From Bryobacteraceae bacterium (GTDB taxonomy: Bacteria; Acidobacteriota; Terriglobia; Bryobacterales; Bryobacteraceae): a stretch of DNA of 64,000 nucleotides. The stretch spans positions 130,263 through 194,262 of the forward strand of contig DASZIV010000114.1 in the NCBI GenBank assembly GCA_035948775.1, written 5' to 3'. The notes beneath the pieces were generated by a model. It did no database searches. It was not told the DNA's origin and saw only the letters and a program-made list of their open reading frames with translations. Every line of letters starts with the position of its first letter. Position 1 is the stretch's first letter. Positions 6,723-63,395 of the stretch are shown piece after piece. A program made the translations under genes and the position numbers.

Positions 6723-7382
6723 GCCTGCCTTTTCTCCCAGTCGCGAAACGCCCGGTAGGGCGGGCCCCTATGCCCCTATAAGGTAGAGTCCGATCTCAAA
6801 AATGTTGGCGGGTGCGATAACCACGGCCTATCGCCGTGACCGGCGTTTTCAAGGGATTTATCTTCGGCGCTGGGATAGCTGACGGCAGACGGTAGAATTT
6901 CGACCTCTCTCCGAGTGGCGCGTCACTCGCTCCGAGCTGCGCCGAGGCCGCCGTAGCAGATGTAAGATACGGAAAAATATCTGTTTGGACCTATGCCTTC
7001 CGCGCCAGCGCCCTATAATCAAACGGATTGGCCGGGTTTATGTCGCCCTATACGGCCAATCGGTGCACGCGCCAATGAGAATTTCAATACAATTTCAACC
7101 TCCCGGCGAGTTCCAGCAGCTCACAGAGTGGTCCAAATGCACAGCATTTTCGAGAGATATCAAGGCGCATCGAACTACTGCTTCCTCGCTGAAAGCCCAT
7201 TCTACGCGCTTTGGGCGTGCTATCCGAACCCCCGTTTTGTGCGCAATTCGCGGTGACAAACCGGTGACTCACCACGCCAGCCGCGGGCAAAGATTGACAC
7301 TTACAAGTCGCCCGTGTTCGCATATACCAGCAGTAATTTGTGGGGATGCTCGTTCTGCACTCGCCGTCAGGAGGACTGCGAC

Positions 7383-8141: not shown

Positions 8142-8195
8142 GCAGCCGGTCTGACGCCGAACGGGAGCGTCGTGACTTCGCGAAAGGGGGTGGGA

Positions 8196-11100
8196 ATGAA
8201 AAGCGTTTCCGCGAGTTTCCTGCTGATTGCGGGTATCGGCCTCTCGGCCTGTGTCTCCGTCTGGGGACAGGCTGCATCCACGGCGCAAATCAGCGGCACT
8301 GTTCGCGACTCTGGGGGGCTCTCGGTGCCGGGGGCACTGATTAAAGCGACGCAAACCAGCACGGGCCTGGTGCGAACGGCCACAAGCACCACCGAGGGCG
8401 GGTATGTGATTCCCAATCTACCCATCGGACCGTATCTGGTGGAGATCACCAAGGAAGGCTTCGCCAAGTACATACAATCGGGCATCGTGTTGCAAGTGGA
8501 TGGTAACCCGACCATTGACGCCGCCTTGAAGGTCGGCACGCAGAGCGAACAGGTGGTGGTGCAGGCGGACGCCGCCATGCTGGAAACCCACAGTACCGGA
8601 GTTGGCACGGTAGTGGACCAGCAGCGGGTGGTTGACCTGCCGTTGAACGGCCGCGAGGCGACCCAGCTCATCTATTTGGCGGGCATGGCGACGACCGGCA
8701 ACGGCACCAACCTAAACACCATCCGGAATTACCCCACCCAACTGATCTCGGTGGCCGGCGGGCAGGGGAACGGCGTGACCTATCTTCTGGACGGCGGGAC
8801 GCACAACGATGTGATGAACAATCTCAACCTGCCTTTGCCGTTCCCGGACGCGCTGCAGGAGTTCAAGGTAGAGAGCAGCGCGCTTCCGGCCCAGTACGGA
8901 CTGCATGCCTCGGCAGCCATCAATGCCGTCACCAAGTCGGGAAGCAACGAACTGCATGGCGATGTATTCGAGTTCTTCCGCAACGGGGATCTGAACGCCC
9001 GGGACTATTTCGCCTCCTCCCGCGACACTCTAAAACGCAACCAGTTTGGTGGAACGGTGGGCGGGCCGATTCTGAAGAACAAGCTGTTCTACTTCGTCGG
9101 CTATCAGGGCACCATCATCAAATCGACGCCACCCCAAACCATTGCGTTCGTTCCCACCGCTGCGGAACTAGTGGGAAATTTCGTAGCCGCTGCCGCGCCT
9201 GCCTGCAACACCGGAAGGCAGATCAACCTGCCGGCGTCGCTGGGCTTCGTGGGCAATCAGATTTCCCCAGCGGCGTTGAGCTCCGTGGCGTTGAAAATCA
9301 GCAGCCTGTTGCCCGTCACCACGGACCCCTGCGGCAGAGTCACATACGGCATCCTGGGCAACAGCAACGAACATATCGGGGTAGCCAGAGCGGACTACCA
9401 AGTGACCGCGAAACACTCGTTCTTTGGCCGTTTGGTGATTGCCGATCTGGAAGGGCCGGGCGCTTATGACGGAAAGAATGCGTTGACGTTTAATAACGCT
9501 GCTACTTTGGATCGCGACGCGGCGGTGGTGTTGGGAGATACGTACGTGATCGGCGCCAACTCGGTCAACTCCTTCCGCGCCACAGTGACGCGAACGCGCG
9601 TGGAGAAGACGTCCGATCAGTTCTATTCCTGGGCAGCGCTAGGAGTCTCCACCATTACGCAACTGGTACCATACTTTGCACGGGTGACGGTTTCGGGCGC
9701 CGGCTTTGCGTTCGGCTCCGCTAACGAAACCCCGAGTAAGTTCAATACGGGCCCGACCCTCCAGTTCGGAGACGACTTCAGTCTGGTCCGAGGGTCGCAC
9801 CAGATCGGATTCGGCGCGAATTATATCCACGAACTGATGAATCTGAAATCCGGACTGAACACACCGGGTGGATTTACGTTCAGCGGTCAAATCACCCAAT
9901 TATCGATGGCGGATTTTCTGTTGGGCGATGCGTCGGCGTTCGCACAGGGCGGCTTCTCATTGGGCTACAACCGGCAGAATTACATCGGACTCTACGTGCA
10001 GGATTCCTGGCGGCTCAGTTCCCGGCTGACACTGAACTACGGTCTGCGCTGGGAACCTTATATTGCGCCTTACAGCAAGTACGGATTGTTCTTGAATTTT
10101 AATCCTACGCTATTTGGGCAGAACGTTCACAGTACCGTTTACCCCAACACTCCCGCAGGGGTGATCTTTCCTGGCGATTCGCTATACACCGCAGGCAACG
10201 CTCCTGAGAATTCTACCTGGAGCCGGACGGTGCCGCGGGTCGGAGTCGTTTGGGATCCCACGGGCAGCGGGCGGATGACCATCCGCGCGGCCTATGGGAT
10301 GTTCACCGACCGCCAACATCTGTTCTACTTGGACGCGTTTGCCAACGACGCGCCCTACGGGAATAGCGTCACAACAGGTGCTGTGAGTTTTACTAATCCG
10401 TGGGCGACCATTCCCAACCCGTTCCCTTATGTCCTGACGAAGAACTCCGGGTTTCCGGTTGCGGCAGGCGTGGTGACTCACCAACTGAATGCCCAACCGA
10501 CTTACCTTCATCAATGGAACTTGAGTATCCAACGGCAAGTCGGGGCCAACTGGCTGCTGTCGGCAAATTATGTCGGGAACAGCACGATTCACCTGTGGAC
10601 AGGGAACCAGGAGAACCCGGCGGTTTACATTCCCGGCGCGAGCTGTGTCATTAACGGTATCACGTATAGTCCCTGTTCTTCTTTGACGAACACGAATCAG
10701 CGACGGGTCTTATATCTCCAAAACCCGGATCAAGGACGGTTTTTCGGATCGGTCCAACAGCAGGACACGGGAGGCACCGCAAGCTACGAAGCCTTGTACT
10801 TCTCAGTGTTGCGCAGGCTCAATCGTGGGGTGACCGTGCAGGCGAACTACACCTGGTCGCATTGCATCAGTGACCTGGAAAATACGGAGCTCGGCACAGC
10901 GGGGCCGCTATACATGGTGCCTTCGGAGCGTAGGGTGGACCGCAGTAACTGCGTCTTGTCTGACCAGAGACAGGTGGCGAACATTTCGCTGGTAGCCCAA
11001 ACGCCTCAGTTCTCGGGCCGAACGCTGCGCGCGTTGGCGAGCGACTGGCAGGCCTCGGCCATCATTAGCGCCAAATCGGCGCAATTCTTCACGGTGACTA

Positions 11101-39128: not shown

Positions 39129-39173
39129 CGAAACCTCTGCAGTTTATCGCAGAGTGCACAAAATGGCGCATCT

Positions 39174-39274
39174 GTGGGGCCGGCTTCAGCCTGCAGGGGG
39201 CTTTAGCCCCCCGGGGTTGTGCGTAGCTAGAGGCAGCGGGACTGAAGTCCCGCGCAGGTTGAAACCTGCCCCAC
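39174..39274 (+). repeat. REP-like four-hairpin repeat, copy A
   Basis: gtggggc-[gccggcTTCAgcctgc]-a-[ggggcTTTAgcccc]-spacer-[gcgggacTGAAgtcccgc]-[gcaggtTGAAacctgc]-cccac. Homologous to copies at 60236, 61833 and 63301. Confidence 0.85.
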
Positions 39275-39278
39275 AAGC

Positions 39279-48404: not shown

Positions 48405-51371
48405 ATGAACCCTGGGCGGTTCGTTTCGCTCATCGCGATTAGCCTGATGTGTGAAGCGATCCTATCTGCGCAAGCTACAGGTTACCTCTATGGTCGCGTT
48501 CTGGATCCTTCCGGCGCTGGGGTGCCAGGCGCGGGAGTTACTGTCATCAACGAGGACAGCGGCTTTCGGCACACGACTCAGTCACGGCCAGATGGCGGTT
48601 ATGCCGTCGGTGATTTGACCCCGGGCGACTACAAGATCACGGTCCGCAAAGACGGTTTTCGCTCAATGATCCGCTTCCACGTGCGCCTCGACCAGGCTGC
48701 GCCGGCTCGCGCCGATTTTGCGTTGTTGCTGGGAAGCATTCAGGAGACCATCACGGTAGAAGGCACGGCTTCCCCGCTGAGCCGCGACGACTCCGCTGTC
48801 ATCTCGATACTTGGCAGAGAAGATATCGACCGGCTTCCCGTGAACGGTCGGGGCGTGCTCGGCTTGGTGGAACTGGCGCCCAGCGCCAGCATTGTTCCGG
48901 CTACCCGCGGAGATGCCGGCCAATTCGTGGCGGACGGCCAGCGCGCCAATACCAATTACTTCACTGTTGACGGCGTTTCCGCCAACAACGGCATCACCGC
49001 CGGCGGTCTACCGGCACAAGCTACCGGCGGCAGCCTGCCCGTGATGAGCGCGTTCGGAAGTCTCGATGCGCTCATCGCGCTGGACTCCATCGAGGAATTC
49101 CGGATTCAGAGCTCCAGCAACCCTTCCTCGTTCGGGAGGCTGCCCGGCGCCAACATCTCGGTGGTAAGCCGATCCGGGTCAGACGAGTTTCATGGCGCGG
49201 GCTCCTTCGGTTTTCGCCACGAGTTGTTGGGCGCTAACGATTGGATGGCTAACCGCGACGGCGAGCCGCGGGCCGCCTTGCGCGAACAGAATGCCAGCGG
49301 CACTTTCGGCGGACCCTTGTGGCGCAACCGGAGTTTCTTCTTCCTTTCTTATGAGCACATGGCGATCGAGCAGCCGTTTGCCTGGGTAGCGGCTGTTCCG
49401 TCGCTAGAGGCTCAGAGCGCAGCGCCGGCGTGGGCCCAACCGGCACTGAACTTGTTTCCCGACCCGAATGGACCCTCCCTTTCAAACGGCTTGGGCGAGT
49501 GGACGGGCCGAAGTTCCCGTCCGGGTAGTCTCGACGCCGCGAGCCTGCGGTTGGATCATGCTTTGACGGAACGGATCTCGCTATTCGGACGCTTCAGCGA
49601 AGCTCCCTCCAGCAACCAATTCGGAATCACGCAGATCAACCGTCTCGATTTCCGGTCGTGGAGCGGCACGGTGGGACTGAACCTGCGCGCCGGAACCGAG
49701 ACCGTGGTGGATTTCCGGTTGAACCAATCGGTTTCTTCGGCACAATCTGTCTGGAGCGGCAATGCAGGCTGCGAGTTGCTGCCTGTAGCCGCCCAATTTC
49801 CGTTCTCAGCGCCAACGTGCAATCTGCTAATTCGATTTTTGATCGGGGGAGTGGGCCAGGTAGTCTCCGGACCGGAGGGAGAGCGGCGCCAGAGCCAGTT
49901 CCAATTCGTTCAGTCCGCGGGGTGGAAGCTTGGCGCGCATTCTTTGCGACTGGGAACGGACTATCGCCGCATCGTGCCCGAGCGGCGCGACTCCAGCGGC
50001 ACCCTCAGCCTGATAGCGGATAATCTGCTCGCACTCGATAATCAAAACTATTGGGTCGGCCATTCGGCGGCACAGAGCGGCTCCGAACCCGTTCGCGAGA
50101 TTTCCATTTGGGCGCAAGACACCTGGCAAGTGGGCCGGAGTCTCGCGCTCAGCACTGGTCTGCGGTGGGAGTTCAGCCCAGCACCCAGATCACCGAATCT
50201 TTATTTTCTGGAACCCGCCGGATTCGAACAGGAAACGCGCCCTCTTTGGCCTGCCCCGTACGGCCATTTTGCGCCACGGCTCGGCATAGCGTTCAGCCCC
50301 GGCCGCGCTGGACGCACGGTTATTCGCGCCGGCGCAGGCATTTACTATGATTCCAGCCTCAGTATCGCCACCGATGCGATAAACAGCGGTCCGTTGAACA
50401 CCTTCACGAGCCCGCGGAATGGCCCCTTTTCCACGTTCTTGTGGTATGGATTCATGCCGGATCTTCATCTGCCGTGGGTAGCGCAGTGGAACGTTTCGGT
50501 GGAGCATTCGCTCACCCCGCGCGACACCATCTCCGCAGGATATTTGGGATCAACCGGCCGCGATCTGATCCGCCGCGAGCTTGGGGGGCCCGGAAGCGCT
50601 CCGACTTCGTGGTTCGCGTTGACCACCAATCACGGCGCCTCCGACTACCATGCCTTCGTAGCGCAATACCGGCGGCGTGTTGCGCACGGGCTCGAGGGCT
50701 TGGTCTCGTATTCCTGGTCGCATTCGCTGGATAACGATTCGAGCGATTCGTTCCTGGTTTGGGCGGGTAAGAGCGCCAGCCCGGCGCGCGATTGGGGATC
50801 GTCGGATTTCGATGTGCGGCAATCGCTCGCGGCGTCGCTCGGCTACGCATTGCCGGGGGTGGCTAAGGGCTGGTCGTTGGACGGAATTTTCCGAGCGCGC
50901 AGCGGCTTTCCGATCACCGTGCTCGACGCGGATCAGTACACGGGGCTCACCCTCACCAACGCTTTTCGTCCGGACCTGGTCCCGGGCGTACCCGTCTGGG
51001 TCGCAGACCCTAATGCGCCCGGAGGCAGAAGCCTCAACCCGCTGGCGTTTAGCTCGGCGGGATTCCGGCCGGGCGACCTGGGCCGGAATGCCATTACCGG
51101 CTTCGGGATGTGGCAGTTTGACCTGGCCCTGCGCCGCGAATTCCGGGTGGCCGACCGCAGCACCATCGATCTACGCGTCGAAGCGTTCAACGCGCTGAAT
51201 CACCCTAACTTTGCAGACCCCGTAAAGTACCTGAACAGCCCGTTATTCGGACAATCCACCTCCATGTTAAATATGATGCTGGGGACCGGCAGCCCCGGTA
51301 GCGGACTGGCTCCTCTGCTACAGAACGGGGGGGCACGGTCGCTGGAAGTGGTTCTGCGATTCCGGTTTTAG
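48405..51371 (+). CDS. TonB-dependent-receptor-like outer membrane protein with carboxypeptidase regulatory-like domain
   Basis: Signal peptide, 'GRVLDPSGAGVPGAGVTVINEDSGFRHTTQSRPDGGYAVGDLTPGDYKITVRKDGF', plug-like 'IDRLPVNGRGVLGL', and the C-terminal aromatic 'LRFRF'. Confidence 0.85.
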   Translation: MNPGRFVSLIAISLMCEAILSAQATGYLYGRVLDPSGAGVPGAGVTVINEDSGFRHTTQSRPDGGYAVGDLTPGDYKITVRKDGFRSMIRFHVRLDQAAPARADFALLLGSIQETITVEGTASPLSRDDSAVISILGREDIDRLPVNGRGVLGLVELAPSASIVPATRGDAGQFVADGQRANTNYFTVDGVSANNGITAGGLPAQATGGSLPVMSAFGSLDALIALDSIEEFRIQSSSNPSSFGRLPGANISVVSRSGSDEFHGAGSFGFRHELLGANDWMANRDGEPRAALREQNASGTFGGPLWRNRSFFFLSYEHMAIEQPFAWVAAVPSLEAQSAAPAWAQPALNLFPDPNGPSLSNGLGEWTGRSSRPGSLDAASLRLDHALTERISLFGRFSEAPSSNQFGITQINRLDFRSWSGTVGLNLRAGTETVVDFRLNQSVSSAQSVWSGNAGCELLPVAAQFPFSAPTCNLLIRFLIGGVGQVVSGPEGERRQSQFQFVQSAGWKLGAHSLRLGTDYRRIVPERRDSSGTLSLIADNLLALDNQNYWVGHSAAQSGSEPVREISIWAQDTWQVGRSLALSTGLRWEFSPAPRSPNLYFLEPAGFEQETRPLWPAPYGHFAPRLGIAFSPGRAGRTVIRAGAGIYYDSSLSIATDAINSGPLNTFTSPRNGPFSTFLWYGFMPDLHLPWVAQWNVSVEHSLTPRDTISAGYLGSTGRDLIRRELGGPGSAPTSWFALTTNHGASDYHAFVAQYRRRVAHGLEGLVSYSWSHSLDNDSSDSFLVWAGKSASPARDWGSSDFDVRQSLAASLGYALPGVAKGWSLDGIFRARSGFPITVLDADQYTGLTLTNAFRPDLVPGVPVWVADPNAPGGRSLNPLAFSSAGFRPGDLGRNAITGFGMWQFDLALRREFRVADRSTIDLRVEAFNALNHPNFADPVKYLNSPLFGQSTSMLNMMLGTGSPGSGLAPLLQNGGARSLEVVLRFRF

Positions 51372-54300
51372 GTTCGCCCGCCGAGATAATAATGCACCGC
51401 CGGCGTGACCACCAGCGACAGGATCATCGACGCCAGGATTCCGCCGATCACCGCGATCGCCAGCGGCTGCAGCATCTCTGAACCGGCGCCCAGCGCGAGA
51501 GCTAGCGGAATCATGCCGGCTACTGTCGCTAGCGCGGTCATCATGATGGGGCGCAAGCGTCGCTCGCCAGCGCGAATCATACTTTCTTCCGGCGTCAGGC
51601 CCTCCGCCCGGAATTTCTGATCGGCGTCCAACAAGAGAATTCCGTTCTTCGATACAATCCCGATCACCATTATGAGGCCCATGAAGGAAGAGAGGTTGAA
51701 CGTCTTGCCCGTAATAAGCAGCGCCAGGAACACTCCGCAGGTCGACAATAACGCCGAGCAGATCACGGCAATTGGCGCGGCAAAGCCACCAAATTCAAAC
51801 AGCAGCACGGTGAAGACCAGCACGATGGCCAGCAGCAGCACAAACGCGAAATCGCGGAAGGAATTCTGCTGCTCTTCATATTGCCCTCCGTATTGCACGC
51901 GAATCGTGGGCGGCAAGTGCAAGGCGGCCACCGCGGCCTGTACGCGGCGGATTCCCTCGCCGAGATTGACGCCTTCCAGCCGGCCGGTCACCGTGACATC
52001 GCGCAGCAGATTCTCGCGGCGGATTTCGGTTTGCCCGGGAAGGTCGGTCACTGTGGCGAGCGAGCCCAAGGTGCCCGTCCGTCCGGTGGCGCTGACCAGG
52101 GGCGTGTTGCGAACGGCGTCCATCGAAGCGCGCGTGGACTCGGGAAAGCGCACGCGAATCGTATAAGCGCGGTCATTCAGCACCACCGGCGCGGAAGCCG
52201 GCTCCCCTTGCAGAATGGCGCTGGCATCCAGTTCCACCTCCTGCGGGGTGAACCCCGCGCGCGCGGTCACGGCGGGGTCCACTTGAAACACCGTGGCCGG
52301 ACCGCTGATGGTGTTCTCGATTCCGTTCAGGACATCCACCACGCCCGGAATCTTCTTAATGGCGTCGCCCACTTGCGGCGCCCAATCGCGTAGTGTTTGC
52401 GGATCCTGGGCGAACAGCTTGATGGCGATGGGCTCTGGTGCGCTCGTCAAATCGCCAATCATGTCCCCCAGAAGCTGCACAAACTCAACGTCCAGCACCG
52501 GCTCCGCCTTCTTGACCTGCGCGCGGGCTTCGGCGATGACTTCATCGCCGGCGCGGTCGCGCTTTTGCTTCAACTTCACGGAGATGTCGCCCCTGTTGGC
52601 CTCTGTCACCGCCGCCAGCCCCAGTTCCAGTCCAGTGCGCCGCGCTGTGCTGGACACTTCTGGAATGGTCCGGAGAATCTGCTCCACGTGTTTGATGATG
52701 CGATTGGTTTCGTCCAGCGAAGATCCCGCCGGCGTGAAGTAGTCCACGATGAAGCCGCCCTCATCAATTTCCGGCAGCAGGTCGGAACCAATCGCGTTGT
52801 AGCAAAAGTACGATCCGGCAATCAGCGCAACCGCAAACAGGCCGAGGAGCAGTGGATGCGCCAGGGTCATCCGCAGGGTGCGTTCGTAAATACGCATTAC
52901 TCGGGAGGGAGCCGCGTCGTGCTCAGCATGCCTGGCGCGCCCGCGGCTGCGGATCAGGTAGTGGCTCAAGGTCGGTGTCCAGGTCAGCGCCAGTGCGAGT
53001 GAAGTGAGCAAGGCCATCCCCACCGTGAGCGCCAAGGCCCGGAAGAAAGTGCCATTGACACCAGTAATCGAGATCAGCGGCAGAAACACCACGATGGGCG
53101 TAATCGTGGATCCGATCAGTGGGACGCGAATCTCTCGCAACGCGCTGCGTATTGCTTGCGCGCGCGTCTGCCCGGAATCGCGGTGCAGGACGATATTCTC
53201 CACCACCACGATGGCATCGTCGATGACCAACCCCACCGCCGCGGCCAGGCCGCCCAGCGTCATCAGATTGAAGGTCTGTCCTAGCGCGCGCAAGCCGACG
53301 AAAGTCACGGCCACCGTAGCAGGAATCACCAGTCCTGCCACCAGTGAAGTCCCCCAATCGCGCAAAAACAGCACCATGATCAGCGACGCCAGGATCAGTC
53401 CGATGAGGATCGCGTCGCGCACACTCTTGATGGACGCCACGACAATTTCCGACTGGTCGTAAAATGCATTGAGCTGAATGCCTTTTGGCAGTGTGCTGCG
53501 GAGGTTCTCGATTTCCTGATGGACCGCATTGGCAACTTCCACCGTATTGCCATCCGGTTGGCGGAAAATATTGAGCAGGACGGCAGGTTTCGTGTTGGCA
53601 GTCACCACCGTATAAACCGGCGTTACCGAGGGACCCACGCTGCCGATGTCGCCGATGCGCACCGGGGCTCCGGCAGGCGTGGTCTTCACCACAATATTGG
53701 CGATCTGATCGGGAGTGCGGGCCTGGCCGCTTACGAGGCTCAGAACGAGTTGGTGATTATCAGAGATGAGTCCCGGGGAATCGATCAAGTTGCTGCGGCC
53801 AATGGCGTCCAGAATATTGGGAATGGTGGTGGCGGTCTGGATCAGCTTGGCGGCGTCGGGCGTCACTTGAAATTCCGGCTGCTGCCCGCCCTGTACCACT
53901 ACCGTGGAAACTCCCGGCATGCGGTTCAGCCGGGGCTTCAGTTCATAGTTGGCTAACTCCCAAACGCGTGTCTGCGGCACCGTATCGGAAGTCAGGCTGT
54001 AACCGATTACCGGAAACGCGGCGAAGGTAAGGCGCTGCGCGTTGATCTTTACGGTGGAGGGGAGCGAAGGGAGGGTCCGCGCGATCGCCGCATTCACCAA
54101 ATCGAGTGTGCGGTACATGTCCCCTTTCCAGGAAAAAAACAGGTCGATTTCCGCCGTGCCCCGGCTGGTGATGGACCAGATGCGTTCCAGGCCCTGCACG
54201 GTGTTCAGCGCCTCTTCGAGCGGCCTGGTTACGGTGACCATCATCTGGTCAATGGGAACCACGCCATTGTCCACCGCGACCACGATGCGCGGGAAGTTGG

Positions 54301-54457
54301 TTTCGGGGAACACGGCCACGGGGATCGTGAGCGCCAGATAGATCCCCACGGCCACCAGAGTCAGGATGACGAAGATGATCGGCTTGCCGTGGCGATCGGT
54401 CCAGTGTACGGCCTCCGCTTCAGCCGCGACTGGTGGAGGAGTCAGCAGCTCGCTCAT
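51368..54457 (-). CDS. RND efflux transporter permease (AcrB/CzcA superfamily)
   Basis: 1029 aa with 12-TM RND architecture and 'VGLVIDDAIVVVENI'. 4-nt overlaps with the neighbouring genes. Confidence 0.9.
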   Translation of the reverse strand: MSELLTPPPVAAEAEAVHWTDRHGKPIIFVILTLVAVGIYLALTIPVAVFPETNFPRIVVAVDNGVVPIDQMMVTVTRPLEEALNTVQGLERIWSITSRGTAEIDLFFSWKGDMYRTLDLVNAAIARTLPSLPSTVKINAQRLTFAAFPVIGYSLTSDTVPQTRVWELANYELKPRLNRMPGVSTVVVQGGQQPEFQVTPDAAKLIQTATTIPNILDAIGRSNLIDSPGLISDNHQLVLSLVSGQARTPDQIANIVVKTTPAGAPVRIGDIGSVGPSVTPVYTVVTANTKPAVLLNIFRQPDGNTVEVANAVHQEIENLRSTLPKGIQLNAFYDQSEIVVASIKSVRDAILIGLILASLIMVLFLRDWGTSLVAGLVIPATVAVTFVGLRALGQTFNLMTLGGLAAAVGLVIDDAIVVVENIVLHRDSGQTRAQAIRSALREIRVPLIGSTITPIVVFLPLISITGVNGTFFRALALTVGMALLTSLALALTWTPTLSHYLIRSRGRARHAEHDAAPSRVMRIYERTLRMTLAHPLLLGLFAVALIAGSYFCYNAIGSDLLPEIDEGGFIVDYFTPAGSSLDETNRIIKHVEQILRTIPEVSSTARRTGLELGLAAVTEANRGDISVKLKQKRDRAGDEVIAEARAQVKKAEPVLDVEFVQLLGDMIGDLTSAPEPIAIKLFAQDPQTLRDWAPQVGDAIKKIPGVVDVLNGIENTISGPATVFQVDPAVTARAGFTPQEVELDASAILQGEPASAPVVLNDRAYTIRVRFPESTRASMDAVRNTPLVSATGRTGTLGSLATVTDLPGQTEIRRENLLRDVTVTGRLEGVNLGEGIRRVQAAVAALHLPPTIRVQYGGQYEEQQNSFRDFAFVLLLAIVLVFTVLLFEFGGFAAPIAVICSALLSTCGVFLALLITGKTFNLSSFMGLIMVIGIVSKNGILLLDADQKFRAEGLTPEESMIRAGERRLRPIMMTALATVAGMIPLALALGAGSEMLQPLAIAVIGGILASMILSLVVTPAVHYYLGGRT

Positions 54458-55773
54458 TTGTCGTCCTTGTCGCCCTTATCGCTTTTGCCGCCTTTTTCGT
54501 CCTTGTCGTCTTTGTCGGGCTTCTCGGCTTCGCCCGGCTTGACGATCTTCACCTTCGCCTTGTCGTCGAGCCCGACGCCTCCCACCACCACTACTTGCTC
54601 TCCCGGCGTGACGCCGCTGATGATCTGGACTTTGTCGGCCTCGCGCACACCCACCTCAACCTTGCGCTGGTGCACAATGTTGTCGGCAGTCACCACCAGC
54701 ACTATGGTTCCGCCCTCTTCTCCCGACAGCAGCGCAGCCGTAGGGACGACTACCGCATTGGGGATGGTCGCGGCCACAATCGCGACGTGTACGCCGGTGC
54801 CCGGCTTCAGGCGCTCGCCCGGATTATCGGCCTGCACCCAGACTTGGACGGTGGTGCTGCTGGGATCGGTGGCGGGGCTAACCACTGTAACCTTGCCTTG
54901 CACTGCGAGGGAGGTATCGGTCTGGGTCAGCGTGGCCGAGGCGCCCACTTTCAGGGCGCCCGCCTGATTCTGCGGGACGTTGGCGCGCGCAATCACGCGC
55001 GAGATATCCATCACGGTCATGAGCGGCGTGCCCGGATTCGCCATTTCGCCGGCGTACAGGGGGCGGTCGGCGATGACACCGCCGATGGGGGCTCGCACTT
55101 CGGAGTAGCCCAACTGTGCCTGGGAGGATTGATAGTGCCCACGGGCCGCTTCCACCTGGGCCTGTGCGCCTTTGACCTGTTCCTCTTTGCCGACGCTCTG
55201 GAGAACGCGCAGGTGTTCCTGGGCCGAGGCGAACTGGGCGCTTGCCTGGGCGTAGGCCACCTGGGCATCGTCCACCAGCTTGCGGGCCAGCGCACCCTGT
55301 TCTAATAGCTTCTGGCGGTTCGCCAGCAACTTCTGCGCGGCGTCCAAGGTCTGCTGGGCCGATTGCACATCGGTCTGCGCCTTGATCACCTGTTCCGGAA
55401 TCGTGGCCGATGACGTCGCACGGAAGTTGGATTCGGCCTGGTCGAGCTGCCCTTTGCTCTCGGCCACGGCTGCCGACAGGTCACGGCTCTCAAGCGTTGC
55501 CAGCAGTTGCCCGGCCTTAACATGGTCGCCGCGATTCACATAGAATTTCTGCACCGGCGCGCTGATCTTGGGCATCGTGCCGGACTGGTCCAGCGGGTAC
55601 AGCACGCCGTCAGCCTCCACCACGCGCCGAATCGATTCCTGGCGCACCGGCTCGACTTGCACGGGGGCAGCTTCGGGAGCGGCGTTGTCGGCTTCGTCGG
55701 CTTTCTTGGAGCAGCCGGACAGGGCCAAGAGGTACAGGGCGATGAGCCACGTCAATGAACTGGTTCTCCGCAT
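54454..55773 (-). CDS. RND efflux periplasmic adaptor (MFP/HlyD family) with K/D-rich C-terminal tail
   Basis: Lipobox 'LSGCS', coiled-coil hairpin, beta-barrel 'VEVGVREADKVQIISGVTPGEQVVV', and tail 'KPDKDDKDEKGGKSDKGDKDDK'. Confidence 0.9.
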   Translation of the reverse strand: MRRTSSLTWLIALYLLALSGCSKKADEADNAAPEAAPVQVEPVRQESIRRVVEADGVLYPLDQSGTMPKISAPVQKFYVNRGDHVKAGQLLATLESRDLSAAVAESKGQLDQAESNFRATSSATIPEQVIKAQTDVQSAQQTLDAAQKLLANRQKLLEQGALARKLVDDAQVAYAQASAQFASAQEHLRVLQSVGKEEQVKGAQAQVEAARGHYQSSQAQLGYSEVRAPIGGVIADRPLYAGEMANPGTPLMTVMDISRVIARANVPQNQAGALKVGASATLTQTDTSLAVQGKVTVVSPATDPSSTTVQVWVQADNPGERLKPGTGVHVAIVAATIPNAVVVPTAALLSGEEGGTIVLVVTADNIVHQRKVEVGVREADKVQIISGVTPGEQVVVVGGVGLDDKAKVKIVKPGEAEKPDKDDKDEKGGKSDKGDKDDK

Positions 55774-55780
55774 ATATTGC

Positions 55781-57088
55781 CTAAAACGTTCCCGTCAACG
55801 TCTGCAGATTGGCGATGGCCGCGCGATAGCGCACCAGCCCGTCGTCGGCCGCGTTGCGCGCCTGCACCAACGTGGTCTGCGCATCTTTCACTTCGAGGAC
55901 GGTCACTTCCCCCGCCTGGTAGCGCAGCAACGTCAGCCGTAAGCTCTCGTTGGAAAGATCGAGGGAGCGCCGCAAGGAGGCAATCTGCATGCTGGCGAGA
56001 TCAGCCTCCCGATACAAAGAATTCAGATTGGCGAGCAGCTCGCGCTGAGTAAGACTCAGGTCGGTTTGCGCCTGCTTCAGACGCAGCTCCGATTGCCGGA
56101 TCTTGCTGCGCGTGGCGCCCCAGTTCCATACGGGAATGTTGAGCGTGGCCTGCACCGCCGAGCCGAGTTGGTTTTGACCGTCGCGGTTGTGCAGGGCGTA
56201 TTGATTCGCCTCGATGCCGAAGAAATAGTCCAGCGACAATGTGGGGTACAAAGCGCTGCGCGCGCTCTTGATTTCAAATTCCTGTTGTTGCACGGTGGCC
56301 ATGGCGGCGCGGATGTCAGGATTATTCGTGCTGGCCATCGATTGGACGCGCTGGAAATCGGGGAGCGCCGTGGCCGTTTCCAGGTCATCGGCAACCGTGA
56401 AGTCTTGCCGAAACTCCGGAAACACCAGGACCGCCAGGCCGAGCCGCGCCTTCTGCTCCGCCAGCAGCGCATCCTGCGTATCGCGCCGCCGCTGCTCCAC
56501 CAGAATTTGGGCCGTCACCACGTCGGAGTGAGCCACTTCACCACCCTGCTCCTGCTTCTGGGTAATATCGAGGAACTGCTCAGCCTCGCGCTGGTTTTGT
56601 TGCGCGTTGGCATACTTGCGCGCGGCCGTGACTAGCGCGTAGTAGTCCTGAACCACAGTGGCATACAGGCCGCGAGCCGCGATATCGGCCTTGGCGCGCG
56701 CCACTGCCTCGGCCGCTTCGGCGCGGTGATAATCAGCACGTTTGCCGGGCGCGAACAGATCGCCATGGACATTGGCCGTGTTGTAGTACACGTGCGGACC
56801 GTCATTGGGCACGAACACGCCGCTGAGCGTTCCGTTCGGCTGCGTGTAAATGAACTGGTTGAACCAGTTGGCAGTGGGCAGTAGCGCAGCCTTTGCCTGC
56901 ACTGTGTCTTCGTGGGCGATCTGGGCCGCGTTGGTTGCGGCGAGCAGCGTCTGGGCATTGGCGCGGGCCCGCTCCAGGGCATCCTGCAGCGTCAGTTGCA
57001 GACTCGCATTCGGGGCGGGCGGCGCCTGCGCGTGCGCGACGCCACACAACCAGAGGCCCATGCCGGCAATCAGAGAAAGAAACCGCAT
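55781..57088 (-). CDS. TolC-family outer membrane efflux protein
   Basis: Signal peptide and two OEP repeats ('LQDALERARANAQTLLAA...', 'RSALYPTLSLDY...'). Confidence 0.85.
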   Translation of the reverse strand: MRFLSLIAGMGLWLCGVAHAQAPPAPNASLQLTLQDALERARANAQTLLAATNAAQIAHEDTVQAKAALLPTANWFNQFIYTQPNGTLSGVFVPNDGPHVYYNTANVHGDLFAPGKRADYHRAEAAEAVARAKADIAARGLYATVVQDYYALVTAARKYANAQQNQREAEQFLDITQKQEQGGEVAHSDVVTAQILVEQRRRDTQDALLAEQKARLGLAVLVFPEFRQDFTVADDLETATALPDFQRVQSMASTNNPDIRAAMATVQQQEFEIKSARSALYPTLSLDYFFGIEANQYALHNRDGQNQLGSAVQATLNIPVWNWGATRSKIRQSELRLKQAQTDLSLTQRELLANLNSLYREADLASMQIASLRRSLDLSNESLRLTLLRYQAGEVTVLEVKDAQTTLVQARNAADDGLVRYRAAIANLQTLTGTF

Positions 57089-57164: not shown

Positions 57165-57965
57165 TCACCGCACGACCAATCCCTGCCCCGTCGGCAACGA
57201 CAGCACCTCCGCCCTTAACTCGCGTACTGTCTCGTCAATCTTCTCCTTCTGATACCGGTGCTCGTGATTCGCGTAATCGTCAAATAGCACCAGCGCGCCT
57301 GGAGAGAGCCGCGGCCAGAAATGCATAAGCGCGGCGCACTCCGGATACGCGCTATTCATATCAATGTGCAGAAAAGCCACGCGCGGGATCTCCAACGTGG
57401 CCAGGATCTCGGGAACTGGGCCGCGGACGATCACCGCGTTCGGCCACTCCGCGAAGTTCGCACGCACGCGTTTCACGTCCGTCACGTAGGAGCCCCGCTC
57501 GAGCAGTTCTTTCGTCAGGCCGGCCTTTCCCTGCTTCAGTTCCTCCGCTGAAAATTGTTCCACCACTGGCCCCGAAAAAGTATCGATCAGATAGAATTTG
57601 CGCGGCACGCCCGCCCAATCGAGGCAGTGCATGATGGCGGAGCTGACGAACCCAGCGTTGACCCCGCACTCGACGAAATCGCCAGGACTCCGCAAGGCAG
57701 TAGCAGCGGCCCATAGAGCCACATGAACGCGCCACTCCATGCCGGGGTCGACGCCCCAACTCGCTTGGATGCCCCGCGTGTACGCCTTCCGAAACTGGGG
57801 ATCACGCCGGAAGTCGGCGTTGTGCACGGTGAACAGGCCATCCTGGGCGTAATGCCGCTTCACATCAAAACGGAGACAACCGATGCGCGCTAATGCGGGG
57901 TCCAGCACGCGCCGGATTCTGGTTCGCACGCGTTTGGGGAGAAACGTCGCCAGCCTGCCCATCAT
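57165..57965 (-). CDS. TylF/MycF-like class I SAM-dependent methyltransferase
   Basis: 'GDFVECGVNAGFVSS', 'FYLIDTFSG', 'VAFLHIDMNSAYPECAALMHFWPRLSPGALVLFDDY'. Confidence 0.75.
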   Translation of the reverse strand: MMGRLATFLPKRVRTRIRRVLDPALARIGCLRFDVKRHYAQDGLFTVHNADFRRDPQFRKAYTRGIQASWGVDPGMEWRVHVALWAAATALRSPGDFVECGVNAGFVSSAIMHCLDWAGVPRKFYLIDTFSGPVVEQFSAEELKQGKAGLTKELLERGSYVTDVKRVRANFAEWPNAVIVRGPVPEILATLEIPRVAFLHIDMNSAYPECAALMHFWPRLSPGALVLFDDYANHEHRYQKEKIDETVRELRAEVLSLPTGQGLVVR

Positions 57966-58064: not shown

Positions 58065-58318
58065 CGAGAAAGCCAGTATATAGAATTGGCGGAAGAAACG
58101 GTGGGGTAGGCGTTAGATTGCCGAAAACAGAGCGGGCTCAAGCATGCCCCACCGCTAGAGGTACTAGGAAAATTCTCGGTGTTGGCCTGCAAGAAAAGCA
58201 TCGCAAAGAAAGCACCTCCGTGTATACTCTCTGCTATTCTCAGTCATTCGGAGTCCCGGAAATAGAGGGCTGGGCGAATAATTCAAGCAAGCGATGAATC
58301 CCAAAAGGAGTAAGTGAC

Positions 58319-59419
58319 TTGAGTATGGTGGCGATGGTGCTGACTGTGTTGAGCGTGCTCTTGGCGAGCGTCAGCATCTGGTTCGGATTGTGTCTCGCGA
58401 TGCAGAACGGGCGACTCCTGATTCGGATCGAGTCTCTCGAAGCCATCCTGTTTGCGAAGCCGGGCAGCATTGGCCTGGCGCCTGGGTCCACGCTGGGTGA
58501 CTTCTCTCTTCCTCTCGTCAGCAGCGGCGGCACCATGACACTGTCGCAATGGCGAGGCAAGAAAGTCGTGCTGATCTTCACTCGCCTCGGGTGCCACCAC
58601 TCCGAGCAGATGTTGCCACAGTTGAGCGTTGCCTTGGCAAACGCAAAGCCTGGCGGCCCGGTTCCGTTGGTCATCTCAATGGGCGATCTGGCCGGGAGCC
58701 AGCGATTATTCGAACGCCATCCGATCACCTGCCCCGTGCTTTCCGATGAGGAATCCGAAACGGTCCGGCACTACCGTGTGGCCGTCACACCGATGGCCTT
58801 GGTAGTGGACGAACGAGGCGCGGTCGAAGGCAACGTGGTGATCGGAACGGCGGCAATTCTTGACCTGTTTCGTGAGGGAACGGCCCGTGGCGAGCAGTCA
58901 GCCGAAGACTACTCGAAGGTCTCCTCTTCCTTGTCGCGCAGCAAGCTCGTGCGGGACGGGCTGAAGGCAGGCACCACGGCTCCGGAGTTCCGTTTGCCCA
59001 CTCTCACAGACGGACAGGATATTGCGCTCGCCGACTTGCAAGGCCGGCCGCTGCTCCTGGTGTTTTCGGATCCCAATTGCGGGCCCTGCCAGCAACTGGC
59101 TCCCAAGCTCGAAGAGGTACACCAAAGTTCGCCCGATCTACAGCTCGTCATGATCAGCCGCGGCGACCGCGACGTGAATCGGGAGAAAGCTACCAAAGGC
59201 GGCGTGACTTTTCCTGTGGCGTTACAGGCCCATTGGGAAGTTTCGAAGGCTTATGGCATGTTCGCCACACCAAGCGGGTATTTGGTGGATGAACATGGCG
59301 TTCTGGCCAGCGATGTGGCAGTGGGCGGAGATGCCATTCTCCGTCTGGTGGCGCAACGCCAGGCTGGCGGAAGTCAACCAGGGGCGGAGCCGCAGGTTCC
59401 GGCCGCACTGAACACATAG
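58319..59419 (+). CDS. membrane-anchored protein with two TlpA/ResA-like thioredoxin-fold domains (MauD-like N-terminus; CxxS + CxxC)
   Basis: RBS 'aaggag' lies 8 nt before TTG 58319. TM segment 'MVLTVLSVLLASVSIWFGLCLAM' is followed by 'QNGRLLIRIESLE'. Domain 1 has 'VVLIFTRLGCHHSEQMLPQL'. Domain 2 has 'LLLVFSDPNCGPCQQLAPKL' and 'FATPSGYLVDEHG'. Confidence 0.8.
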   Translation: MSMVAMVLTVLSVLLASVSIWFGLCLAMQNGRLLIRIESLEAILFAKPGSIGLAPGSTLGDFSLPLVSSGGTMTLSQWRGKKVVLIFTRLGCHHSEQMLPQLSVALANAKPGGPVPLVISMGDLAGSQRLFERHPITCPVLSDEESETVRHYRVAVTPMALVVDERGAVEGNVVIGTAAILDLFREGTARGEQSAEDYSKVSSSLSRSKLVRDGLKAGTTAPEFRLPTLTDGQDIALADLQGRPLLLVFSDPNCGPCQQLAPKLEEVHQSSPDLQLVMISRGDRDVNREKATKGGVTFPVALQAHWEVSKAYGMFATPSGYLVDEHGVLASDVAVGGDAILRLVAQRQAGGSQPGAEPQVPAALNT

Positions 59420-59447
59420 ACCAACCAAAAAGGGACTGGGCAAAAAA

Positions 59448-59756
59448 ATGAACAAGACGCTTGATGATTTCGCAAAGGGTTTGGCGAGTGGCATGTCGCG
59501 CCGTAGCGCTTTCTTGAAACTTTTGGGGGGAGCGGGAGCTCTCGGATTTCTAAGTCTTCGGCAAGCGAAGGCCGGGGCGAAGCTTCCTAAGCTTAAGTTT
59601 CCGAAGGATCCTGCCCAGTGCGAGAGTTTCTGTCTGAACTATGCGGACGAGGTCTATCTTGAGTGCGCCTTCGGCTCCAAAAAGGAGAATGCCTGCTTCG
59701 AACTGCAGAATCTCACCTATTTAGAATGCACGTACGAGTGTACGAATCGGCCGTAA
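59448..59756 (+). CDS. Tat-signal cysteine-rich mini-protein, paralogue 1 (102 aa, 6 Cys)
   Basis: 'MSRRSAFLKLLGGAGALGFLSLRQAKA' twin-arginine signal. The mature part follows C-x3-C-x10-C-x9-C-x10-C-x3-C. Confidence 0.8.
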   Translation: MNKTLDDFAKGLASGMSRRSAFLKLLGGAGALGFLSLRQAKAGAKLPKLKFPKDPAQCESFCLNYADEVYLECAFGSKKENACFELQNLTYLECTYECTNRP

Positions 59757-59924
59757 CGAGCGGCATTAGTTAAACAACACTGCGTCTGGCTACCGATGTG
59801 GCCGTGGAGGAGACGCGATTCTCCACCGGGTGGCGCAATCCCGACCTGGTGGAGCTTACCTGGGGCGGAGTCGTGAGTTTCTACCGCGCCGAACACAAAA
59901 CCAACTAAAGAAAGGGAGTAGAAA

Positions 59925-60218
59925 ATGAACAAGACGATTGATGATTTCTCAAAGAGTTTAGCGGGCGGCATGTCGCGCCGCGGCGCTTTCTTGAAGCTTC
60001 TGGGGGGCGCGGGAGTCCTGGGATTTCTAGGTGTGCAGAAAGCCAAGGCGAGCGAGTTCCCCAAGAATAAAGCCCTGTGCTCGAGTTACTGCCTTAACCT
60101 CGCGGATGAGGAATATCTCTTCTGCATGCTTTGCAACCCAAAGGATCAGAACGAATGTTTCGAACAACAGAATATCGACTATTTAAAATGCGCGTACGAG
60201 TGCGCGAATAGCAAGTAA
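59925..60218 (+). CDS. Tat-signal cysteine-rich mini-protein, paralogue 2 (97 aa, 7 Cys)
   Basis: RBS 'gggag'. 'MSRRGAFLKLLGGAGVLGFLGVQKAKA'. Same 6-Cys core plus one extra Cys. Confidence 0.8.
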   Translation: MNKTIDDFSKSLAGGMSRRGAFLKLLGGAGVLGFLGVQKAKASEFPKNKALCSSYCLNLADEEYLFCMLCNPKDQNECFEQQNIDYLKCAYECANSK

Positions 60219-60235
60219 AAGCCGACACTAGAAAA

Positions 60236-60333
60236 GCGGGGCAGGCTTCAGCCTGCAGGGGGCTTTAGCCCCGGTGTTGTAGCCGCTTGCCGGAGCGGGG
60301 CTGAAGCCCCGCGCAGGCTGAAGCCTGCCCCAC
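60236..60333 (+). repeat. REP-like four-hairpin repeat, copy B (between mini-protein genes 2 and 3)
   Basis: gcggggc-[gcaggcTTCAgcctgc]-a-[ggggcTTTAgcccc]-spacer-[gcggggcTGAAgccccgc]-[gcaggcTGAAgcctgc]-cccac. Confidence 0.85.
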
Positions 60334-60365
60334 AGCAACCTGGGCAAACCAAAAGGACGAGACAA

Positions 60366-60701
60366 ATGGACAAAACGCTGGACGATTTCTCAAAGAGTTT
60401 GGCCGGAAGTATGTCCCGGCGTAGCGCGTTTTTGAAACTCCTGGCTGGAGCAGGAGCGTTCGGATTTCTAGGACTGCGGAAAACGAAGGCCGGGACGTCC
60501 AAGCCTCCCAAGTTCGTATTTCCGAAAAATCCCGCGCTGTGCGAGAGTTACTGCTTGACCTACGCGGATGAAGTGTATTTAGAGTGCGCCTTCAACAAAC
60601 CGAAGGAGGCCAGCCTGTGCTTCGAAAAACAGAACCTTGCTTATCTAGACTGTATGTACGAGTGTGAGTGCTATACCAGCAAGACGTGCGACCTCGGGTG
60701 A
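60366..60701 (+). CDS. Tat-signal cysteine-rich mini-protein, paralogue 3 (111 aa, 8 Cys)
   Basis: RBS 'aagga'. 'MSRRSAFLKLLAGAGAFGFLGLRKTKA'. Same 6-Cys core plus the 'CECYTSKTC' tail. Confidence 0.8.
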   Translation: MDKTLDDFSKSLAGSMSRRSAFLKLLAGAGAFGFLGLRKTKAGTSKPPKFVFPKNPALCESYCLTYADEVYLECAFNKPKEASLCFEKQNLAYLDCMYECECYTSKTCDLG

Positions 60702-61736: not shown

Positions 61737-61832
61737 GCCCCCTCCGATTTCCACTAATCTCTCAAACAGAGTCTTTTCTCCAGCCGGAGCTACGACTGAT
61801 CAACTAAAAGTACCGCTCCCGTTGGTAGGCAT

Positions 61833-61929
61833 GTGGGGCAGGGTTCAGCCTGGAGGGGCTTTAGCCCCGGTTTTGTAGTCGCTTGCCGGAGCGGGGCTGA
61901 AGCCCCGCGCAGGGTGAACGCTGCCCCAC
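61833..61929 (+). repeat. REP-like four-hairpin repeat, copy C
   Basis: gtggggc-[agggTTCAgcct]-...-[ggggcTTTAgcccc]-spacer-[gcggggcTGAAgccccgc]-...-ctgccccac. It ends 7 nt from the stop of the minus-strand gene at 61937. Confidence 0.85.
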
Positions 61930-61936
61930 AACAACT

Positions 61937-63193: not shown

Positions 63194-63300
63194 GCAGGAC
63201 CGGATGGATCTACTTCCCTCTTATACAGCACGAGCCTTGTTTATTGGATGGGTAAACGGCTTGGGAAGTAACAGAACCGGTGGTACTTGACTCGTGCTGT

Positions 63301-63388
63301 GTGGGGCGGGCTTCAGCCCGCGGCGGACTTTAGTCCGCCATCCGAACCAGCGGGACTGAAGTCCCGCGCAGGCTAAAGCCCGCCCCAC
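63301..63388 (+). repeat. REP-like four-hairpin repeat, copy D
   Basis: gtggggc-[gcgggcTTCAgcccgc]-g-[gcggacTTTAgtccgc]-spacer-[gcgggacTGAAgtcccgc]-[gcaggcTAAAgcccgc]-cccac. It ends 7 nt from the stop of the kinase gene. Confidence 0.85.
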
Positions 63389-63395
63389 AAGAACC

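Follow-up and report, generated by a model that had tools for sequence, protein, structure and literature searches.

Three tandem genes for Cys-rich mini-proteins in a Bryobacteraceae genome, predicted alpha-hairpins linked to a tandem thioredoxin-fold membrane protein

Small proteins in which nested disulfides hold two antiparallel helices together are known from several systems, and we compared with these a group of three tandem genes for Cys-rich mini-proteins that lies beside the gene for a membrane-anchored tandem thioredoxin-fold protein, in a 64,000-nt stretch of DNA from a Bryobacteraceae bacterium (contig DASZIV010000114.1, positions 130,263 to 194,262 of the forward strand; hereafter the window). 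In mitochondria, the twin-CX3C (small Tim) and twin-CX9C (CHCH) proteins form an antiparallel alpha-hairpin with two nested disulfide rungs, and the dedicated oxidoreductase Mia40 recognises the targeting signal of these substrates and oxidises them after translocation. In plants, the alpha-hairpinins carry a mirror Cys motif with an outer CX3C pair on a helix-loop-helix, include a three-disulfide 6C class and often come as multi-module or multi-copy proteins (PMC11591084). In bacteria, the glycocins (sublancin, glycocin F and thermoglycocin) are peptides whose helix-loop-helix is held by nested disulfides, to which some add a third disulfide that closes a loop at the C-terminus, and their clusters encode thioredoxin-like thiol-disulfide isomerases (PMC12457901). 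The principle of the nested-disulfide alpha-hairpin is already established in mitochondria, in plants and in the glycocins of Firmicutes. A further precedent, for the linkage of enzyme and cargo, is found in Paracoccus denitrificans, where the gene order is mauE-mauD-mauA and the 12-Cys cargo part of MauA follows a twin-arginine leader that is long. MauE and MauD are implicated in disulfide formation in the small subunit in passages of PMC7794033 (citing van der Palen 1997) and of bioRxiv 10.64898/2026.03.05.709764, and MauE is described as a DsbB-like oxidase that acts on the periplasmic side and has CXC as its active site (bioRxiv 10.64898/2026.03.05.709764). Since glycocins (PMC12457901) and MauA/MauD exist, the statement in a preliminary description of the window that the mini-proteins have no known bacterial counterpart needs correction.

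Set beside these systems, the mini-proteins would be exported, disulfide-stapled alpha-hairpins matured by a dedicated thiol-disulfide oxidoreductase, a reading to which we give a probability of roughly 60%. It builds on the genes themselves, on their predicted fold, on a conserved mirror framework of Cys and on the linkage to the tandem thioredoxin-fold protein. No curated family and no characterised member combines a three-rung hairpin with a twin-arginine-type leader and a tandem-thioredoxin partner. The features that appear to be undescribed are the CX3C-X10-C mirror module, the tandem-domain enzyme and a shared leader that ties this enzyme to diverse cargo across phyla.

The preliminary description had the three products aligning over their full length, and this holds, with 64–70% identity from end to end and unchanged gene boundaries (Table 1). 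The mature parts are 55–69 residues long. In paralogue 1 the six Cys are spaced C-3-C-10-C-9-C-10-C-3-C; paralogue 2 (C-3-C-10-C-2-C-7-C-10-C-3-C) has an extra Cys three residues past C3, beside the turn, and paralogue 3 (C-3-C-10-C-10-C-10-C-3-C-1-C-5-C) has both of its extra Cys in the C-terminal tail, where this C-x5-C pair could close a small loop. The mirror core first proposed, C-x3-C-x10-C-x9/10-C-x10-C-x3-C, and the one and two additional Cys of paralogues 2 and 3 are therefore confirmed, and the symmetry is exact in all three proteins, such that C1+C6 = C2+C5 = C3+C4. A purine-rich, Shine-Dalgarno-like stretch precedes each open reading frame (ORF). Pairwise ratios of nonsynonymous to synonymous change (dN/dS, Nei-Gojobori) among the paralogues range from 0.07 to 0.36 in the leader and mature parts alike, so that the option of non-coding ORFs, raised initially, fails. 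Because these ratios are low while dS is near or beyond saturation, the paralogues are old, selected coding genes. The three-gene array recurs in the related P0002/P0003 contig, where P0003 is the orthologue of paralogue 3, and in loci L001–L003; a protein identical to paralogue 1 (P0001) is present in public metagenomes, and paralogue 2 corresponds to P0010, the NCBI hypothetical protein VG096_15045 of a Bryobacteraceae metagenome-assembled genome (MAG). Given the dN/dS values, the recurrence of the array and the conservation of the Cys in 27 relatives, the Cys pattern of the three genes is not due to chance.

All members of this rare family known so far come from metagenomes or MAGs. Searching 5.8 billion proteins with a single sequence returned only 9 relatives, a profile search 48, and an exhaustive hidden Markov model (HMM) search of 1.84 billion cluster representatives 71 matches. 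Neither Pfam nor NCBIfam has a model that matches the mature hairpin part, tblastn of paralogue 1 against plasmids gave zero matches, and a contig scan of genomes with the mini-protein profile found nothing, though a thioredoxin profile did find loci. A profile search of PDB sequences gave nothing above noise; PsaH, for instance, matched the leader at E 0.4.

In about 27 full-length relatives, C2, C3, C4 and C5 never vary, and the outer two Cys are nearly as constant (C1 is absent in six, C6 in one); the conservation of the pattern in homologues, a point left for checking at first, has thereby been established. The Cys core is kept at 40–50% protein identity across many metagenomes, and the relation C1+C6 = C2+C5 = C3+C4 holds to within one residue in 27/27 relatives, so that the Cys mirror each other about the predicted turn. 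The other conserved positions of the hairpin (Ala at C2+4, Tyr/Phe at C2+8, Phe at C4+1 and Tyr at C4+8) are interface-packing residues rather than metal ligands. Extra or missing Cys also tend to change in pairs. In relatives P0009, P0021 and P0022 the loop is longer and Cys were gained jointly at C3+4 and at C4-4, which would be consistent with a fourth rung, and P0026 lost C1 and C6 together. In every member with a Cys at C5-1 there is a second extra Cys, located in the C-terminal tail in P0017, P0018, P0020, P0025, P0027, P0049 and P0050, while P0006 resembles paralogue 3 in having two extra tail Cys. Overall, the Cys count is even in 20/27 relatives, and these paired gains and losses fit, as a tendency, with extra or lost disulfide rungs.

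Structure prediction agrees with this arrangement. The full-length AlphaFold2 model (27-sequence alignment) has helices at residues 55–75 and 80–99 with a predicted local distance difference test score (pLDDT) of 85–90, and a leader at about 52. The model of the mature part alone (21-sequence alignment; mean pLDDT 88.3, predicted template modelling score 0.73) has helices at 13–33 and 38–57 separated by a four-residue turn at 34–37. In mature numbering the Cys stand at 16, 20 and 31 and at 41, 52 and 56, so that the proposed pairs each sum to 72 and the centre of the ladder falls on residue 36, inside the predicted turn. By simple arithmetic at 100 degrees per residue, the positions i, i+4, i+15 and j, j+11, j+15 lie within 60-degree arcs of their helices. 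Foldseek searches of the PDB with both models found nothing below E = 1; because a two-helix hairpin is too simple a shape, this speaks neither for nor against a likeness to CHCH proteins or glycocins.

The exhaustive HMM search also matched a group of long secreted proteins (P0057, P0062, P0074, P0081, P0097 and P0098), in which 2–10 units of C-3-C-10-C-9-C-10-C-3-C follow one another with Pro-rich linkers between them, P0057 having x4 in the last gap of the unit. Their total Cys numbers are at or near multiples of six, and their N-termini read as general secretory (Sec)-type or lipoprotein-type signals. A profile–profile comparison (hhalign) of the window family with the repeat units gave a probability of 97.4% and E 1e-11, a score of the kind that shared Cys columns inflate. 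The repeat proteins match no Pfam or NCBIfam family, and a search with a profile of mature domain plus repeat unit returned only 2 proteins from 15 candidates, with no repeat protein named by the result. From these architectures, the six-Cys hairpin is an autonomous extracytoplasmic module. Since it occurs in tandem copies in proteins with Sec- or lipoprotein-type signals, the hairpin does not depend intrinsically on the twin-arginine translocation (Tat) pathway or on a cytoplasmic cofactor.

Each of the known hairpins shares part of this picture. The small Tim and CHCH proteins have mirror Cys pairs on two antiparallel helices, as predicted for the window hairpins, but differ in their spacings, their two rungs, their lack of a cleavable leader and their machinery, and the Pfam models CHCH, COX17 and zf-Tim10_DDP do not match the window mini-proteins at E up to 1. 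The plant 6C proteins are spaced C-X3-C-X3-C...C-X3-C-X3-C, in contrast to C-X3-C-X10-C...C-X10-C-X3-C here; their precursors are eukaryotic and secreted through the endoplasmic reticulum, and no sequence relationship to the window hairpins was detected. With the glycocins, the window genes share a thioredoxin-like gene encoded in the cluster, present at all informative loci, and perhaps the tail loop, which C-x5-C of paralogue 3 could form; a core like theirs, with nested disulfides, is a prediction here, from a helix-turn-helix model (pLDDT 88) and mirror-symmetric Cys. However, glycocins are found in Firmicutes, have two interhelical rungs rather than the three predicted here, and depend on a double-Gly/GK leader, on a SunS-type glycosyltransferase and on an ABC exporter with a C39 peptidase. 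The window genes have none of these beside them, and their leader ends in AxA.

The strongest functional evidence is the adjacent tandem-thioredoxin gene, which was missing from the preliminary description. Its product has an N-terminal transmembrane helix, a conserved juxtamembrane QNGRLLIRIESLE motif and two thioredoxin (Trx) domains, the first with C-H-H-S in the window protein and CxxC in more distant orthologues, the second with C-G-P-C. Pfam AhpC-TSA/Redoxin matches twice (6e-32), and the NCBIfam matches, all below cutoff, have ResA (1e-23) and TlpA as the best and include MauD (2e-15). The sequence AAGGAG, a ribosome-binding site (RBS), lies 8 nt before the TTG start at 58319, with an alternative ATG at 58325.

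This gene is linked to leader-bearing genes for Cys-rich proteins in 12/12 informative loci, namely the window, the P0002 contig, L001–3, L014, L015, L007, L008, L009, L010, the P0044 contig, L017 and L018; L004 and L016, where the contig is cut too near the gene, were left out of the count. It stands directly upstream in the window, in the P0002/P0003 contig with its three-gene array, in L001–L003 with their three mini genes, in the P0044 contig and in L017, and upstream with one 92-aa gene in between in L018. At L014 the thioredoxin C-terminus is encoded at the 5' end of the contig, and at L015 the gene starts about 630 nt downstream. A reverse search of genomes and plasmids with the thioredoxin protein as query found four further records, each with a leader gene immediately after: an Acidobacteriaceae MAG (L007), two Blastocatellia MAGs (L008 and L009) and a Caballeronia plasmid (L010). 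The last comes from a cultured betaproteobacterium, its tandem-thioredoxin protein being 43% identical over the whole protein and 58% in domain 2; the gene that follows encodes a 278-aa protein with a leader of the type ENQFDEWTKAVARRPSRRKTL and a large Cys-rich cargo of about 230 aa. Three places in the plasmid record match, of which one was inspected.

The arrangement resembles that of MauD and MauA, in which a thioredoxin-fold gene likewise lies directly upstream of a Cys-rich gene with a long twin-arginine leader. MauD also has an N-terminal transmembrane helix and an 'RQxGxLxxR' juxtamembrane segment, and the P. denitrificans protein is 30% identical to Trx domain 2. There are also differences: the window enzyme has two thioredoxin domains (CxxS and CGPC) where MauD has one, its cargo is a predicted helical hairpin of 55–69 aa unrelated to the tryptophan tryptophylquinone (TTQ) subunit, and window-type loci have no conserved MauE partner. 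In addition, the score with the MauD model TIGR02661 is 56.7 bits, where the cutoff is 188.6, and the MauA model TIGR02659 matches none of the window proteins.

What the cargo proteins have in common is the leader. The motif SRR[S/G]AFLK occupies residues 17–24 in paralogues 1–3 and in all 27 relatives, following a long conserved n-region and preceding a Gly-rich h-region, a basic c-region and AKA/G (cleavage after AKA). As read from the alignment, the h-region is LLGGAGALGFLSL, followed by R/K-x-AKA/G; it is weakly hydrophobic, the c-region is basic, and the end conforms to AxA. Over residues 1–42 the mean pairwise identity is 71%, compared with 38% in the hairpin, or 29% when the six Cys are excluded. 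A leader that is conserved in front of a mature part that is Cys-framed and hypervariable characterises conotoxin superfamilies and the precursors of ribosomally synthesised peptides that are modified after translation (RiPPs). Across about 90 proteins the leader consensus is M-x-K-x-[LF]-[DE]-x-[LF]-[SA]-[KR]-x-L-A-x-G-[MV]-S-R-R-x-A-[FLI], then a hydrophobic stretch rich in Gly and a basic end with AxA, and the cargo behind it differs widely and is nearly always Cys-rich, the commonest other pattern being C-3-C-10-C-6-C-4-C-~20-C. Since the same leader occurs on other Cys-rich cargo beside the same enzyme, it is probably a common handle of an oxidative-folding pathway. The leader of P. denitrificans MauA, MLGNFRFDDMVEKLSRRVAGQTSRRSVIG, looks related by eye (FDD...AGxTSRR), and one distant leader relative weakly matches the N-terminus of TIGR02659 (E 0.041). 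A shuffle test of the n-region HMM gave p about 0.07, which is not significant, and the likeness to the MauA leader was kept as a lead only.

These observations can be assembled into a mechanism for the disulfide-stapled hairpins. The 42-residue twin-arginine-type leader would carry the mini-proteins over the cytoplasmic membrane and be cleaved at AKA/G. The mature part would then fold as an antiparallel helix-turn-helix with C1–C3 of helix 1 and C4–C6 of helix 2 at the interface, and oxidation is predicted to give three nested rungs, C1-C6, C2-C5 and C3-C4. The tandem thioredoxin-fold protein, as kin of MauD, ResA and TlpA, may make, reshuffle or proofread these disulfides outside the cytoplasm; its role as a dedicated catalyst is proposed because of the strict gene linkage, and its extracytoplasmic site because of the analogy with ResA, TlpA, MauD and the periplasmic-side MauE (bioRxiv 10.64898/2026.03.05.709764). 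The product would be a rigid scaffold with a fast-evolving surface, present in several diverging copies. The least certain step concerns what the hairpins do: being small and rigid, variable at the surface and present in diverging copies, they may bind or antagonise something outside the cytoplasm, as an antimicrobial, an inhibitor or a ligand.

Several points weigh against this reading. No outer-membrane exporter, immunity gene or target is evident, and the N-terminal flank of the tandem-thioredoxin protein lacks positive charge. CGPC is a classic reducing-type thioredoxin motif, and for this reason an isomerase or reductase role would be as likely for this protein as an oxidase role. The Tat signal claimed for the mini-proteins stands insofar as all three carry the twin-arginine motif, but the model TIGR01409 scores 10.6 bits for paralogue 2 (cutoff 16.7) and does not match paralogues 1 and 3, and Pfam TAT_signal matches none of the three; with these scores, Tat export is inferred at the level of the motif. 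As to the ladder, the Cys count is odd in 7/27 relatives, paralogue 2 included. Members P0012–P0016 lack C1, retain C6 and have added a Cys near the turn, a set that cannot be paired in a monomeric three-rung ladder, and the Cys that P0023 has gained, at C3-1 and at C5-1, are distant from each other in the hairpin. Such members may form disulfides between molecules, have a thiol that is free or modified, or bind metal. The three-rung helical hairpin of the preliminary description is thus borne out in its two predicted helices (pLDDT 88) and its mirror ladder, but the odd counts and the subgroup lacking C1 do not fit it.

The wider version of this model, in which the leader would serve as both an export signal and a tag that passes diverse Cys-rich cargo to a two-domain foldase resembling protein disulfide isomerase, across phyla, is tentative and on balance doubtful. 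The cargo of such a pathway would comprise the Cys6 hairpins, the CPxGxC-type peptides of glycosyltransferase clusters and the 230-aa Cys-rich protein of Caballeronia, with MauD–MauA as one specialised, single-domain instance. That one enzyme is strictly linked to a conserved leader on very different Cys-rich cargo offers a directly testable model of substrate-targeted oxidative folding in diderm bacteria, which may also account for the job of MauD on MauA. The hairpins themselves are small, probably very stable and naturally diversified, and this makes them candidate scaffolds or bioactive peptides from the hard-to-culture Acidobacteriota.

Of the other explanations, the one that survives best, though we regard it as unlikely, is that the hairpins bind a metal or cluster, with six reduced thiols on one face ligating Cu(I), Zn, Cd or an Fe-S-like cluster, the leader exporting a folded or loaded protein and the CGPC protein acting as a reductase. 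Two hairpins might even dimerise into a Cys-lined four-helix bundle in the manner of Csp1, a Tat-exported four-helix bundle that binds Cu(I) with 13 reduced Cys lining its helices. A twin-arginine-type leader is, at the level of the motif, typical of cofactor-bearing cargo, the CGPC site is of the reducing type, and the best NCBIfam matches of the enzyme, ResA and TlpA, are reductases; TlpA keeps the thiols of Sco1 and CuA reduced. The odd Cys counts (7/27) and the non-ladder Cys would also be easier to explain with clusters or dimers. However, the hairpins have no conserved His, Met or Asp co-ligands, the conserved non-Cys residues being the Ala and aromatic packing positions, and they have no Pfam match to Csp/DUF326 or to metallothioneins. 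They further differ from Csp1 in having two predicted helices and in the paired evolution of their Cys, gains and losses of which are mostly joint. The module occurs as well in the repeat proteins with Sec- or lipoprotein-type signals, which would fold after export in an oxidising compartment. A resistance-nodulation-division (RND) efflux operon upstream, with some similarity to CusA/CzcA and CusB, was considered as a clue to a metal context and rejected, as its best match is of the multidrug type, with CusA/CzcA secondary, and it does not lie beside the cassette in L001.

Somewhat more remote is the explanation that the mini-proteins are RiPP-like precursors, in which the leader would mainly be a recognition sequence for tailoring enzymes (a methyltransferase, glycosyltransferases) and the product would be glycocin-like and disulfide-stapled. 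The conserved leader, hypervariable core and multiple tandem precursor genes are a RiPP signature, and homologues of mauE and mauD were flagged by decRiPPter beside Streptomyces precursors with at least 8 Cys in candidate RiPP clusters, where they were left uncharacterised (PMC7794033). Support also comes from sister peptides that have this leader but whose Cys framework, C-3-C-...-C-6-C-4-C with 'CPxGxC', is unlike that of the Cys6 hairpin. At their loci the order is the tandem-thioredoxin gene, the sister peptide directly before a gene for a family 2 glycosyltransferase (GT2), then HEAT/Anp1 and GT4 genes, a layout present in four independent loci and found in the Acidobacteriaceae and Blastocatellia MAGs (L007–L009) and in two unclassified metagenome contigs; by analogy, these GT2-bearing loci would echo glycocin clusters. 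In contrast, no glycosyltransferase, peptidase-containing ABC exporter, radical SAM (S-adenosylmethionine) enzyme or other RiPP enzyme lies by the Cys6-hairpin genes in the window or in L001, and the leader has every part that an export signal needs, up to a standard AxA site for signal peptidase at its end. A TylF-type methyltransferase gene neighbours the cassette of the window and that of the P0002 contig, but is not conserved in L001.

Finally, the proposal that the ORFs are unexpressed and their Cys pattern a by-product of repeated DNA, for which the REP-like palindromes and the duplicated spacer between the ORFs could be cited, is effectively refuted by selection and conservation, given that dN/dS is well below 1 with saturated dS, that ribosome-binding sites are present, that the Cys core is conserved across many metagenomes and that the repeats lie outside the ORFs.

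Table 1. Features of the mini-protein locus and of the related loci. Positions are those of the window unless a locus is named; aa, amino acids.
Feature	Position	Strand	Remarks
Paralogue 1	59448..59756	+	102 aa; leader aa 1-42 (59448-59573), predicted AKA/G cleavage
Paralogue 1, mature peptide			60 aa, 6 Cys; hairpin = aa 55-99
Paralogue 2	59925..60218	+	97 aa; leader as in paralogue 1; mature part with 7 Cys
Paralogue 3	60366..60701	+	111 aa; leader as in paralogue 1; mature part with 8 Cys
Membrane-anchored tandem thioredoxin-fold protein	58319..59419	+	366 aa; ends 28 nt before paralogue 1
Tandem-thioredoxin locus L010, Caballeronia sp. NK8 plasmid pNK81 (NZ_AP024325.1)	5293-6450 and 6513-7349		Betaproteobacteria
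Sister peptides, same leader	L007 6112-6528; L008 6136-6429; L009 6038-6343; L017 4001-4315; P0044 contig		
Conserved element, ~60 nt	59368..59447	+	before paralogue 1; overlaps last thioredoxin codons
Further copies of the ~60-nt element	59845-59924; L001 7921-8000, 8388-8467, 8848-8927		window copy before paralogue 2
Spacer between paralogues 1 and 2	59757..59924	+	decayed copy of thioredoxin 3' end and 5' untranslated region element
Secreted protein, ~200 aa	61059..61664	+	Sec-type signal, 8 invariant Cys; RBS GGAGGA before ATG 61059
TylF / Methyltransf_24-type methyltransferase	57165..57965	-	Pfam TylF 6e-11; divergent from thioredoxin gene
MauE/DoxX-like membrane protein, 418 aa	61937-63193	-	Pfam MauE 1.4e-6 (29 bits, just over threshold); DoxX match
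RND efflux operon	51368-57088	-	TolC-like outer-membrane efflux protein, HlyD/CusB-like adaptor, AcrB-type permease

Among the neighbouring genes, the one for the secreted 8-Cys protein (about 200 aa) accompanies the cassette in three lineages, its position varying, and the protein is possibly a further substrate or partner. It has no Pfam or NCBIfam match; its homologues are encoded in L001 at 4360-5010 and 5696-6346 (two copies with 61% identity, by the cassette) and in L004 at 8165-8776 on the minus strand, about 7 kb off. The methyltransferase is a possible accessory with weak linkage: the P0002 contig likewise has a TylF gene upstream, a Methyltransf_24 gene lies near the P0044 cassette, and L001 has none. 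The MauE/DoxX-like protein was considered as an oxidase partner and rejected, as it is without CXC, has negligible similarity to P. denitrificans MauE and is absent in the other loci; it is probably unrelated to the mini-proteins.

Within the conserved element, which is about 60 nt long, lies a small hairpin, CGGAGC...GUUCCG, for which covariation support from five sequences is weak. The element precedes all three mini genes of L001; those of L004 and L007–L009 lack it on their upstream side. Because it overlaps the last thioredoxin codons, the C-terminal tail of the thioredoxin protein, GAEPQVPAALNT, is invariant between orthologues that are 70% identical. For the spacer between paralogues 1 and 2, 59290-59460 aligns with 59757-59937; the spacer, a decayed thioredoxin 3' end, is the footprint of the tandem duplication that yielded paralogue 2, so that the duplication unit was the tail of the thioredoxin gene plus the mini gene. 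Between paralogues 2 and 3 (60238-60331) lies a palindrome resembling repetitive extragenic palindromic (REP) sequences or miniature inverted-repeat transposable elements (MITEs), whose 36-nt arms are 92% complementary and stand 22 nt apart. It occurs at least five times in the window, also at about 39173-39275, 61832-61930 and 63300-63389 and, more weakly, at 58135-58153, and its arm has 9 matches in the window against 0.04 expected.

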